From Eledone cirrhosa (Eukaryota), in NCBI GenBank assembly GCA_964016885.1, contig OZ024742.1, positions 10,602,001 through 10,666,000 of the forward strand: a stretch of DNA of 64,000 bases. The letters run 5' to 3'. Below are positions 2,894-21,001 of the stretch, piece by piece. The notes beneath the pieces are model-generated. The model did no database searches. It had not been told where the DNA came from and saw nothing but the letters and a program-made list of their open reading frames with translations. The position numbers were made by a program, and so were the translations under genes. Numbering within the stretch: the stretch's first letter is position 1; the number at the start of each line of letters is the position of its first letter.

Positions 2894-3490
2894 AACATGG
2901 TAACATGTATCCCAGTACAACCTGTCCCATGGTCGGGTCGTTGGCGACTAAACTGGCAACCCCACCAAGGTTTCTTGGTGAGGAGGTTGACTTTGGACAT
3001 CCTGCAGGACTAAAAACAAAACCTGTCAAAGGGCAAAGGAGCTCTTAAGAGTCAATGGCCATCCAAAATCACCGGGAGAGATGACCCCTTAGCTTTTGTC
3101 AAGGCAGAATTCTAGGAGAAGGAAAACTCTGATATAACACCTGCAACCCTGATGGTATCCAATGATGTTGACTTGTTCTTCTTTTTGCTAAATATCATCT
3201 TGGTTAAGAGAGTGGGATTGGCTTTGTGCAGTGCCTTTGCTCACTATAAAAGCTTCACAGCTCAGGCATTGCTTTATATCTGGTGATCTCTCTGCACTTG
3301 TCGTCACATGGAACCATGGGCCCAGCACTATGTGTCAATAATTGTCACAAGTGTAGTGTTTGTACCAGAGTTTTCAAGTCGCTGACTGGACTAGAATATC
3401 ACACTTGTTCAGCACATTGGTAGGGGTTCTCCTACATGGATATAAAGTAGTGGCCGTACTCGAAAACGAGTTGGCAGCCACCATGTATGT
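2894..3490 (+). mobile_element. Non-autonomous bipartite RTE-derived retroposon (5'UTR-like part + 3' end), (TGTA)n tail
   Basis: RTE-5'UTR-like motifs (GGCGACTAAACTGGCAACCCC, CTAGGAGAAGGAAAACTCTG) joined to a decayed C-terminal Zn finger; second copy at 53056-53446. Confidence 0.65.
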
Positions 3491-3563
3491 ATATATATGT
3501 ATGTATGTATATATATATATATGTATGTGTATGTATATGTATGTGTATATACGTATGTGTATG

Positions 3564-3594
<31 letters not shown>

Positions 3595-3627
3595 GTATGT
3601 ATGTATATATATATGTATGTGTATATA

Positions 3628-3672
<45 letters not shown>

Positions 3673-3731
3673 ATATATATATATATGTGTATATATATAT
3701 ATATATGTATGTGTATATATATATATATGTG

Positions 3732-3820
<89 letters not shown>

Positions 3821-3864
3821 AAGTTAAATAAAAGTCAAATGATTAAAATTTAGCTTCGTTTATT

Positions 3865-3919
3865 ACTGCTATATATATTTCAGTGACAGCCATCTTTGGC
3901 TGTGACCTCTTCAGGCAGA
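3865..3919 (-). ncRNA. Minimal type I hammerhead ribozyme (left arm)
   Basis: Minus strand: ACUGC-CUGAAGA-GGUCACAGCCA aaga UGGCUGUCACU-GAAA-UAUAUA-UA-GCAGU. Confidence 0.8.
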
Positions 3920-4130
3920 TTGAATTAGTATGGTATAGACAAGTACATATGTTGTTTAGGTGTATAATATTGTCAATACTCTGATATGGGTTGTTATTCC
4001 ACTGAGGAACTGGAGTCATATGACTCCAGTTCCTCAGTGAAATACCCAACAAGGAACTGGGCATATCAGAGTATTGACAATATTATACACCTAAACAACA
4101 TATGTACTTGTCTATACCATACTAATTCAA

Positions 4131-4185
4131 ACTGCCTGAAGAGGTCACATCCAAAGATGGCTGTCACTGAAATATATATAGCAGT
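4131..4185 (+). ncRNA. Minimal type I hammerhead ribozyme (right arm)
   Basis: Stem I ACTGC/GCAGT, core CTGAAGA 4136-4142, stem II 4143-4168, GAAA 4169-4172, palindromic TATATA, predicted cut after AUA at 4180, AATAAA 4186-4191. Confidence 0.8.
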
Positions 4186-4335
4186 AATAAACGAAGCTAA
4201 ATTTTAATCGTTTGACTTTTATTTAACTTTATTTTACACTACTCCGGAGTAACCAGACCTACCTGCGTACTTCGTCGAGTGCTCCAGCCTGCATACTGAG
4301 GTGTTGGTATACAACCAACATAAACTCAAAATATG

Positions 4336-4366
<31 letters not shown>

Positions 4367-4386
4367 ATATATATATATGTATGTAT

Positions 4387-4417
<31 letters not shown>

Positions 4418-4501
4418 TATATATATATATGTATATATATGTATATATGTATGTATATATATATGTATATATATATATATATATGTATGTATGTGTATAT
4501 A

Positions 4502-4542
<41 letters not shown>

Positions 4543-4549
4543 ATATATG

Positions 4550-4598
<49 letters not shown>

Positions 4599-4986
4599 AT
4601 ATATATATATATGTATGTATATATATATATATGTATATATGTAGATAAATCTACCAAGAGTTTACGGTAGTGTCCAATCCGTATGAAGAACTCAATGTAT
4701 TCCGGATATCATGGAAAGAAGAGATGTAATGAAAAATCACTTTCGGTGAAAGATAAACGGTATACAGAGTCAAGATAAAATATTAAACAAATAATGAATA
4801 AACAATGAAACAGTTCCTTATATTAAACAAAAAAAGTTCATTATTTAACGATCGTTTCTAGGATATATATGTGTTAGAATTGGCATGCATATTCAACAGA
4901 TCTATGTACAAAATTATACAAAATTATACAAACTATCAAGATTAAATATACATACCAACACATATATATGCCGTCTATATATATAT

Positions 4987-5139: not shown

Positions 5140-6236
5140 TAACTAAGAACATAGATAACTAAGAACATAGATTTTACATGTGGCCGGTGCTCTGGTGCAA
5201 TAAGTAGCAGCAAGTGCCCACAAACTACTAGCTCTTTCAATTGCGCAGAGGGTTCTATAGAAATAGTGGACAGCTTCCGTTACCTGGGCGATAAAATCAG
5301 CAGTGGGGGAGGGTGCTCTGAAAGTACTGTAGCTAGAGTCAGAACTGGTTGGAAAAAGTTCAGAGAGCTTATACCACTATTAGCTGCTAAAGGGTTCTCA
5401 CTAAAAATGAAAGGCAGGTTGTACGATGCCTGCATACGAACAGCAATGCTGCATGGCAGTGAGACCTGGGCATTGTGTGCAGAGGATATACGCAGACTAG
5501 AGAGGAACGAAGCTTGCATGCTCCGCTGGATGTGTAACAGTAATATACGTGAACGGCAAAGCATAAACGAACTAAGGAATAAATTAGAGATAAGAGGGAT
5601 CAGATGTTGTTTACTCGAGAGAAGGCTACGTTGGTATGGACACGTGATGCGCATGAAAGTCGATAGCTGTATAACAAAGTGCAGGGCAATAAAGATAGAC
5701 GGTAGTCACGGAATAGGCAGACCTAGAAAAACCTGGGACGAGCTGATAAACTCCGACATCACACACTTACACCTCTCCAAGACAATGTCACTGGACCGAG
5801 ACCTTTGGCGGTACTCAGTAACAGAGAAGACCCGCCTTACCTAAATATATAGTAAAACCTACTCCAGCCAGTAGGCATCTCTAACAAATACACCCCGTCC
5901 CACCACCCCCACCCGATCCACACCACCCCGTTCTATGTAAAGTTATGTTGGTGCCGCGCCATCGAGGCCGAAACAAATGAGATCGTGTAGGTGTCACGAC
6001 AAAAAAACACACAGTCCACGCTGTAATGTGGCCGTGTAGGCAACACGGTAAAAACCTCCCAGACCCACACTGTAAATGTGGTTGGTGTTAGGAAGGGCAT
6101 CCAACTGTAGAAAACCTGCCAGACAGTCCTATGCGAGCAAGACAATCACTCTTGCCTCAAGTGGGACTACCCCCGTCCAAACCCATGCAAGCGTGGAACA
6201 CGGACGTTAAACGCTGATGATGATGATGATGATGAT
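5140..6236 (+). mobile_element. RTE-clade LINE, 5'-truncated, with 3'UTR and (GAT)n tail
   Basis: ORF 5266-5844: [32 protein letters not shown]. Confidence 0.93.
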
Positions 6237-13048: not shown

Positions 13049-13629
13049 TATCATCATCATCACCGTTTTACGTCTGTTCTTCCGTGCTAAATGGGTTAGA
13101 CAGGTTGTCCTGTTGTGGGCAGTGTCTGGTCGGCTGACCATGCCTTGCTCATACAGGAACTGATTTTGGCTTGATTTCTACAGCTGGATGCCCTTCCTAA
13201 CACCAACCTCATTTACAGTGAGTGCTGGGTGCTTTTTTGTCGTGGCACCTCCACGACCACTTTGCAGTGGGAGGGTGTGGGGGCATATTGTCTATATGCT
13301 TCAGCTTGTACCCATGGGAGGTCGGGTACTCTGTATTACTGTGTGACGCCAGAGGTCACGGTTGTGTGTCATCGCCTTTGAGAGGTGTAATTGGGTAAGG
13401 TCGGCTTTTATCACCTCATCCCACGTCATCTTGGGTCTCCCCACACCGCGGTTTCCACTGACTTCTAGAGCTCTGCACCTTTTTATACAGCTGTCATCCT
13501 CCATACGCATCACATGTCCATACCAGCGCAACCGCCTCTCCTGCACACAGCATTTGATTCCTCTTATGCTCAGACTCTCTCTCAACTCATTTATGCTTTG
13601 CCGTTCGCGTATATTACTATTACACATCA
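13049..13629 (-). mobile_element. RTE LINE 3' fragment (second subfamily)
   Basis: ORF 13301-13630 [20 protein letters not shown]; (CAT)n tail at left. Confidence 0.9.
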
Positions 13630-13639
13630 TATATATATA

Positions 13640-14205
13640 GTTGGTATGGTCACGTGATGCGCATGAAAGACGACAGCTGCATAAAAAAGTGCAGGGCGAT
13701 CAAAATTGATGGTAGTTACGGAGTAGGTAGACCCAGAAAAACCTGGGATGATCTGATAAATTCCGACCTCACACGCTTACATCTCTCTAAGATAATGTCT
13801 CTGGACCAAGATCTTTGGCGCTACGCAGTAATACAGAAGACCCGCCTTGCCTATGTACAAAGCGAAACCTACAGTTAGTAGGCACCTCTTAACCCCAATC
13901 CACTGTCCCCATCCACTACCCATACCCTATCCTCCCACTCCCACCAACAGCACGAGAAAATGAGATCGAGATCGTGTAGGTGTCACGACAAAAAAAAAAC
14001 ACACACAGTCCACGCTGTAATGTGGCCGTGTAGGTAACATGGTAAAAAGTTCCCAGTTCCACACTGTAAATGTGGTAGAAAACCTGCCAGATAGTCCTGT
14101 ATGAATGAGACACGGCCACCCGACCAGCCTTGCCTCAACTGGGACAACTCCCGTCTAACCCATGCTAGCGTGGAAGATGGACGTTAAACGAAGATGATGA
14201 TGATG
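13640..14205 (+). mobile_element. RTE LINE 3' fragment
   Basis: ORF 13654-13878 GRPRKTWDDLI; same 3'UTR as 5845-6236. Confidence 0.9.
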
Positions 14206-20147: not shown

Positions 20148-20474
20148 GTGAGACAACAAACACCTGGCTTTTCTGTTAGATTAGTGGACCTGCTACTGAC
20201 TTGATCTATGTAGACCTGTCCATCCCTTGCTAGCATGGAAAATGGACATTAAAAAATGATGATATATATATATATATATTTATTTAGGTTTGTTGGTTCA
20301 CCACTGGATAGAACTGGTCATTCCGTATGGTCAACCTCGATGTAATATTATGCAGATCACTCAACGTAATGCAACTCGCCCATCTTCGTTTGTGTAGTTG
20401 GTGGTGCGGGTACGGAGTTAATTGTTATAAAATAACAGGAGGCTAGACTGGTGTAATTCCTAAAAAGGTTTATT

Positions 20475-20532
20475 ATACTATGATCATTTCAATGACCGGG
20501 TTCAGTATGAATCCAGTAACATCATCAGGTAT
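20475..20532 (-). ncRNA. Minimal type I hammerhead ribozyme (left arm)
   Basis: Minus: AUAC-CUGAUGA-stem II-GAAA-UGAUCA-UA-GUAU, then AAUAAA. Confidence 0.75.
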
Positions 20533-20573
20533 TTGAAATATAACAAAGGAATTATTTCTTTGTTATATTTCGA

Positions 20574-20631
20574 ATACCTGATGATGTCACTGGATTCATA
20601 CTGAACCCGGTCATTGAAATGATCATAGTAT
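20574..20631 (+). ncRNA. Minimal type I hammerhead ribozyme (right arm)
   Basis: Stem I ATAC/GTAT, CTGATGA 20578-20584, imperfect stem II 20585-20615, GAAA 20616-20619, palindrome TGATCA, cut after AUA 20627, AATAAA 20632-20637. Confidence 0.75.
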
Positions 20632-21001
20632 AATAAACCTTTTAAGGAATTACACCAGTCTAGCCTCCTGTTATTTTATTATATATATATGAGAGTGTTG
20701 AAGTTTGCTTGAAGCATTGTAGAATAATAACATTGGTCATTTTGGAAGCCTCAACAATGCAGATGGGTAAATCTCCGGGTAACAGAATCAGGTGGTAATG
20801 AGAGAGATGTAAGAGAAAATGTAGAATGAGATGTATAGGGTGTAGAGGAACGTATGAAAGAGTGTAAAAATAATAACACAAGATAGAGTTACCTTGGAAG
20901 TGATTTAATTGTCCCTATATTTCGGATTTCACATCCATCAACTGGGGGTTTTTCCGAGGCGGAAAGTTTTTAGTCGGAGAAGGACAACACATAGCTTCTG
21001 T

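Follow-up and report, generated by a model that had tools for sequence, protein, structure and literature searches.

The fold-back between positions 3814 and 4332 of the window (the whole stretch of 64,000 nucleotides of Eledone cirrhosa contig OZ024742.1 that was analysed, on which all positions are counted unless another locus is named) is a 519-bp retroelement insertion with (TA)n on both flanks. By the motifs of its parent family the locus is classified as a 5′-truncated insertion of a Hydra-clade Penelope-like retroelement (PLE). The fold-back itself probably arose when both cut ends of the target primed cDNAs which were then joined at TCATATGA. For the most part the structure is ordinary: a short truncated PLE copy whose ribozyme-bearing end has been inserted twice, back to back. 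The initial annotation described the region as a fold-back carrying a divergent pair of hammerheads and overlooked its nature as a PLE insertion with a tail, an arrangement that has already been published.

The two 175-nt arms described earlier (3814-3988 and 4062-4236) were borne out and are complementary at 172 of 175 positions, with three mismatches. The 73-nt spacer between them is also palindromic and includes a perfect 40-bp palindrome (4000-4039, centre 4019/4020); the true centre of the inversion is a native 8-bp palindrome, TCATATGA (4016-4023), derived from the 3′ region of the element and common to both arms. The minus strand carries an inverted, 5′-truncated and tail-less pLTR copy (3814-4023; 206 nt to the centre), and the plus strand a 5′-truncated pLTR (4016-4236) corresponding to the 3′ end of the element monomer. 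The asymmetry of the two arms is due to a 15-nt deletion at 3988/3989 in the left one and a 4-nt deletion near 4043 in the right one, both relative to other family copies. The element extends to about 4332, and the stretch from 4237 to 4332 (plus strand) forms a 96-nt tail present on the right side only. In tandem copies of the family, organized as pLTR-ORF-pLTR, the sequence of 4237-4332 continues into the ORF, whose ATG lies about 56 nt further on; the tail is therefore the element's own 5′ leader. (TA)n-rich microsatellites form the left (3484-3813) and the right (4333-4643) target flank, and no target-site duplication is readable within (TA)n.

A dispersed-repeat search with the right half gave 767 candidate copies, the best 40 of which were scored and showed 89-97% identity to the query; each search was sampled by its best 40 matches, and the sample is skewed toward the window's own variants. 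Longer copies were traced upstream to full-length parents with a monomer of 4135 nt (about 4.1 kb). Their open frames of 860 and 856 amino acids, read directly, contain RT motifs and, at the C terminus, the GIY-YIG domain (RMRWKA, HADKT, QLDIASYY, LYRDD, CNCRxxxxC in the form CNCRNPESC, YIG, CKLC and CRH). The features described as diagnostic of the Hydra clade in section 11 of PMC8557442, namely RWK, DKT, the CxCX5C linker and CxxC and CxH around conserved E and N, are all present. The monomer is larger than the clade's usual size, as Hydra elements are generally shorter than 3 kb, which the part of PMC8557442 used here presents as a tendency rather than a criterion. The family also has the features of EN+ Penelope-like elements: a single ORF with RT and C-terminal GIY-YIG, a hammerhead within the pLTR, pLTRs from partial tandems, an inverted 5′-truncated copy and a one-ended tail. 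In a Pfam search of the 860-aa ORF neither RT nor GIY-YIG scored, one truncated copy gave Pfam GIY-YIG with E 0.0033 (under the cut-off), and a PDB sequence search of the parent ORF returned nothing significant; its Atlas neighbours lay at 0.92-0.96, some of their members carrying RVT_1 or HTH_animal.

In many parent copies (L065-L084) the middle of the ORF, where a poly-G run separates RT from endonuclease, contains a frameshift. An RT plus GIY-YIG fragment beside L032 was set aside, as it belongs to another PLE family; this fragment (L032, 3314-4345; LYRDD RT and GIY-YIG, Pfam E 1.1e-4) abuts a truncated copy of the present family. Long open frames of other retroelements, several of which look PLE-like, lie near family copies at L035 (2434-4212), L038 (4303-6759) and L040 (3284-4601).

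Insertions of the family are bounded by two fixed ends. The tail-less end, represented here by position 3814, was found as an exact pattern at 1428 sites, and the tail end gave 2851 exact matches, some of them tandem read-through. (TA)3+ lies within 40 nt of all 69 tail-less ends and of 80 of the 86 tail ends. After sequence de-duplication 100 element clusters were available, a few of which may be one insertion counted twice; an end that could not be called excluded 41 of them from the pairing of ends. In every one of the 59 clusters resolved at both outer ends a tail end was paired with a tail-less end, and neither tail/tail nor no-tail/no-tail pairs occurred among them. Some of the searches demanded a tail, which does not account for the lack of tail/tail pairs.

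Hammerhead cleavage was considered as the source of the insertion ends and rejected, since (TA)n adjoins the cut site at only 13 exact genomic sites as against 1428 tail-less ends; with so few sites there and so many fixed ends, ribozyme cleavage does not set the ends. Eight of the 13 sites were inspected: five copies end there, two are loop expansions and one is an inversion. In a few copies (L175-L179) the end coincides exactly with the helix III/cut site of the hammerhead and lies in (TA)n, and at L178 (1140-1522) such an end is paired with a tail end; these copies would fit cleaved-RNA priming, priming within the RNA at its (UA)4 loop or later deletion. At 21 of 86 tail ends (e.g. L011, L016, L019), compared with none of 69 tail-less ends, a (CT)n run stands ahead of (TA)n. 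Such runs may reflect repeated copying by RT at initiation, the leader having a short TCT there.

The junction found at this locus is a recurrent one. The exact fold-back 24-mer is present at 229 genomic sites, compared with 851 for the 23-mer of native read-through, which means that about 35% of arms reaching the TCATATGA site stop there, and the TCATATGA centre was common to all 22 fold-back structures examined. In searches that were not aimed at the centre the exact junction type made up 4 of 62 cases and the arm started within a few bases of the centre in 12 of 62, a clustering which suggests that cDNAs are prone to stop there. Immediately 3′ of the junction, folding predictions place an imperfect hairpin in the native sequence. 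The same junction type was detected as loose ends in the short-read contigs of one study (five contigs in X1 and three in X3), hence it is not a long-read artefact.

In 21 exact fold-back loci the two arms of one locus were 1.5% apart and arms of different loci 2.8% apart, and the arms were not grouped by side (2.77, 2.76 and 2.77%). Subfamily variants were common to both arms of a locus, the junction occurred on several subfamily backgrounds, and the flanks of the 21 loci matched in a few pairs, through microsatellite or other repeat sequence only. Since arms are grouped by locus rather than by side, and since several backgrounds are involved, the fold-back has been made anew at each insertion; the similarity of arms within a locus could partly be due to gene conversion. 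The view that the inversion is young was not upheld, as it arose at retroelement insertion and recurs at 229 sites; accordingly, the identity of the arms dates the insertion (about 1% from the nearest copies) and not a later inversion.

Away from this hotspot the copies are more varied. After removal of 3 junctions without an anchor, 18 which came from the centre-aimed search or the window and 4 at the hotspot, 58 of the 83 other junctions found were retained. Those that were flush (26/58) had a mean microhomology of 2.46 nt compared with 0.71 nt for simulated blunt joins (0/2000 as high), and the other 32 contained extra bases, many of which look templated, so that host repair or template jumps also act. 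Arm lengths were compared in 28 short insertions for which both ends could be called, after removal of five more-than-unit copies: the tail-less arm was the longer one in 12 and the tail arm in 6, and the two were equal in 10. In 6 of the 28 the tail arm was wholly within the tail and had no sequence in common with the other arm; such arms cannot come from one strand folding back, and two-ended priming can make them.

The one-tail rule, the independent arm lengths and the excess of microhomology favour two-ended priming over a single-strand fold-back. The GIY-YIG nuclease would cut both strands of (TA)n, one target end would prime at the tail end (4332) and its counterpart 96 nt upstream (4236). 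The two cDNAs would tend to end around 4016-4020, where the predicted native hairpin has its base, would anneal by eight self-complementary bases and would serve each other as template for filling in. The hammerheads would presumably be passengers of the duplicated pLTR. This course of events needs two pLTRs or two RNAs, as both cDNAs copy the same RNA region. The element PAc has been shown in vitro to cut and extend both strands, with RT starts at two sites bounding its tail (PMC11167929, in the parts used here). We give a somewhat better than even chance to the wider proposition that PLEs insert by obligatory two-ended priming at two RNA sites 96 nt apart, which would explain the tail and the inverted copy, and that stopping of cDNAs at a single native palindrome gives rise to identical hairpin loci by the hundred. 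A published test of two-ended priming on PLE copies was not found in the literature covered, which was for the most part openly accessible.

Both arms contain the elements of a type I hammerhead (core CUGANGA, GAAA, NUH and helices I-III). In the right arm (4131-4185, plus strand) these are stem I (4131-4135/4181-4185), the core (4136-4142), stem II (4143-4168), GAAA (4169-4172) and the palindromic helix III AUAUAUAU (4172-4179), with AATAAA directly 3′ of the ribozyme (4186-4191); in the left arm (3865-3919, minus strand) the core CUGAAGA lies at 3914-3908, GAAA at 3881-3878 and the mirror copy of AATAAA at 3864-3859. The cut previously predicted after 4180 (plus strand) was predicted again, together with a counterpart after 3870 (minus strand). 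The initial annotation spoke of two divergent intact hammerheads; the cores are indeed intact and face away from each other, but each ribozyme has one helix lesion. In the left hammerhead A>T at 3919 gives UCUGC and a stem I shortened to 4 bp, and in the right one G>T at 4150 breaks a stem II pair. Likewise, both arms have the proposed motif from CUGAAGA through GAAA-UAUAUAUA-GCAGU to the following AAUAAA, whereas its ACUGC is found only in the right arm. The G>T change at 4150 was considered as a recurrent hotspot (24/155 copies; arms discordant in 9 of 11 loci) and judged to be a sampling bias, because the queries carried it and it was not among the variants listed at 5% share in the short-read contigs.

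In Rfam no hammerhead family matched at gathering or at E<=10, the only models, far under the cut-off, being hairpin-shaped miRNA/snoRNA ones; the ribozyme call thus rests on motif and covariation. The core is intact in 141 of 157 family copies. Its preferential conservation, a check set beforehand, is weak within the family (0.0075 substitutions per site versus 0.027 outside the core, site-permutation p 0.049; median site rate 0.0065) and clear across three families. Two further families, of which one is present in the window, have only the hammerhead in common with this one and maintain its helices by compensatory change; across the three, 95% of the helix cells are paired and 5 pairs changed on both sides, in five sequences from which the structure itself was drawn. 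AATAAA follows the hammerhead in the two further families too, and helix III is an 8-nt palindrome in all three (AUAUAUAU or AUGAUCAU), as is expected for dimer-type PLE hammerheads from the parts of PMC4209133 used here. We agree with the earlier reading of type I hammerheads that would need a dimer. The conservation suggests that the hammerhead is likely under selection in the parent elements, in which it is likely a working dimer-type ribozyme.

For the locus itself folding predictions point elsewhere. Read-through RNA is predicted to form the long hairpin expected earlier (MFE -348.8 kcal/mol), with a pair probability for stems I and II of 0.0 as compared with 0.23-0.39 in the isolated motif. 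The hairpin had been thought to compete with ribozyme folding; it would mask the ribozymes, but the competition is one-sided, because the arms are head-to-head and either read-through transcript makes the antisense copy before the ribozyme. The two ribozymes lie on opposite strands and dimerisation in cis is impossible. Both are probably fully masked in any read-through RNA, and inert.

Short copies of another family, at L076 (6024-6160) and L037 (5640-5830), have only the hammerhead in common with the family described here. A second fold-back in the window (20279-20679; arms 20427-20552 and 20554-20679) contains two divergent hammerheads of a different family, with the core CUGAUGA, helix III AUGAUCAU and AATAAA, and shows the same architecture, with what looks like a tail of about 150 nt on the left side only and (TA)n on both sides. 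At 5155-5844 and 13301-13699 the window further holds 3′ fragments of an RT frame from a non-LTR retrotransposon, which we take from their motifs to be RTE-like.

The same insertion could have been formed by self-priming, in which a single strand snaps back at the palindrome and then serves as its own template, as was proposed on an antisense template for Penelope palindromic junctions (PMC3846280, in the part considered). At symmetric junctions such as this one a single-cDNA fold-back gives the same product as two-ended priming, for which we argue from the asymmetric copies. The exact symmetry of the junction, the subfamily variants common to the arms within a locus, the hairpin predicted just 3′ of it and the templated look of many bases added at other junctions are what self-priming would leave. 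It can yield neither the arms without common sequence (6/28) nor a longer tail-less arm from a tail-primed cDNA (12/28), and a snap-back exactly at TCAT/ATGA would be loop-less and require trimming, so we regard it as unlikely. Copying of the 519-bp palindrome as a whole unit, i.e. as a non-autonomous element, would account for 229 near-identical structures and for a centre common to 22/22 examined, yet it is largely refuted by the way the arms group (within loci and not by side, with the same junction on several subfamily backgrounds), and the identical two ends bound full-length copies too; we find it scarcely credible.

A later, young inversion giving a functional switch between hairpin and cleavage, or a selected source of dsRNA, appears very improbable. 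Both cores are intact, the predicted read-through hairpin is very stable and hammerhead structure has been kept across families, but with cores intact in 141/157 copies intactness is expected here, each arm has a helix lesion, the antisense is always transcribed first and the structure is one of hundreds formed at insertion. Palindromic arms moreover have more deletions away from the centre than other copies do (7/43 versus 3/92, p 0.012), as in decaying palindromes; the corresponding excess near the centre (7/43 versus 0/92) was discarded as a signal, being biased by the query. Long-read or amplification chimeras can create perfect palindromes, and a sequencing or assembly artefact could in principle look like this fold-back. 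Its arms, however, differ in substitutions, deletions and ends, the junction type is present in short-read contigs and the ends obey the family rule, which leaves an artefact next to no probability.

Taken alone, this locus is a dead copy, one of hundreds. The statistics of the family bear on a question named as open in the parts of the PLE papers considered here, the origin of tails and inverted pLTRs. The family is young, has ends in the thousands, obeys a strict end rule and shows one hotspot, and it offers a ready test set and an in vitro substrate; if obligatory two-ended priming is true, the genome holds a natural footprint that separates it from self-priming. If transcribed, such fold-back loci would be a source of long dsRNA.

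In LINE-1 twin priming two target ends prime separately and the products are joined by microhomology, which results in an inversion. Two-ended priming as proposed here resembles it in the separately primed target ends, the microhomology joins and the inversion product, and differs in the fixed start points, in cDNAs which usually overlap and in a product that is an inverted repeat. The remaining systems are compared through the parts of the cited reports that were covered. PAc (Poseidon, Anolis; PMC11167929) is alike in its two tail-bounding RT starts, AC-rich start region, AT-rich target and insertion ends not defined by hammerhead cleavage; it belongs to another clade and has its tail inside the ORF, whereas the tail of this family is in the 5′ leader before the ATG, and the covered parts of that report give no explanation of the inverted copy.

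The EN+ PLE insertion unit has been described as a pLTR with an adjoining inverted 5′-truncated copy and a one-ended tail (PMC8557442, legend to Fig. 2; PMC3846280). The present family agrees with it in the head-to-head inverted pLTR, the junction palindrome, the one-ended tail, partial tandems and the pLTR hammerhead, and departs from it in a tail of 96 nt instead of the 30-40 bp described, in one junction position that accounts for 229 exact sites and in the rule of tail and no tail (59/59 resolved). With the Hydra clade (PMC8557442) it has in common RWK, DKT, CxCX5C, CxxC/CxH around E and N, the C-terminal GIY-YIG, the hammerhead and (TA)n; its monomer of 4135 nt, compared with 1.4-3.0 kb in 20 families of File S1, is lengthened by low-complexity linkers and by its long 3′ region, and its helix III AUAUAUAU differs from that of the five Hydra hammerheads of File S2 compared. 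The minimal type I hammerheads of PLEs (PMC4209133), pairs of which have been found on opposite strands 100-700 bp apart, likewise have a 5-bp helix I, a long helix II and an unstable palindromic helix III needing a dimer, but with a conserved G-C at 10.1-11.1, where most copies here have G-U (G-C in 19/156). Non-LTR retrozymes (bioRxiv 10.64898/2026.07.22.740005) are also short non-coding PLE-derived sequences with a type I hammerhead; they form head-to-tail tandems of units each with a hammerhead, whereas this locus is a head-to-head pair with no dimerisation in cis. Already in print (PMC8557442, PMC3846280, PMC4209133, in the parts covered) are the inverted truncated copy, the tail on one side, the palindrome at the junction, the targeting of (TA)n and hammerhead pairs on opposite strands; new here are a Hydra-type family of 4.1 kb whose tail measures 96 nt, the strictness of its end rule and a hotspot of 229 sites.
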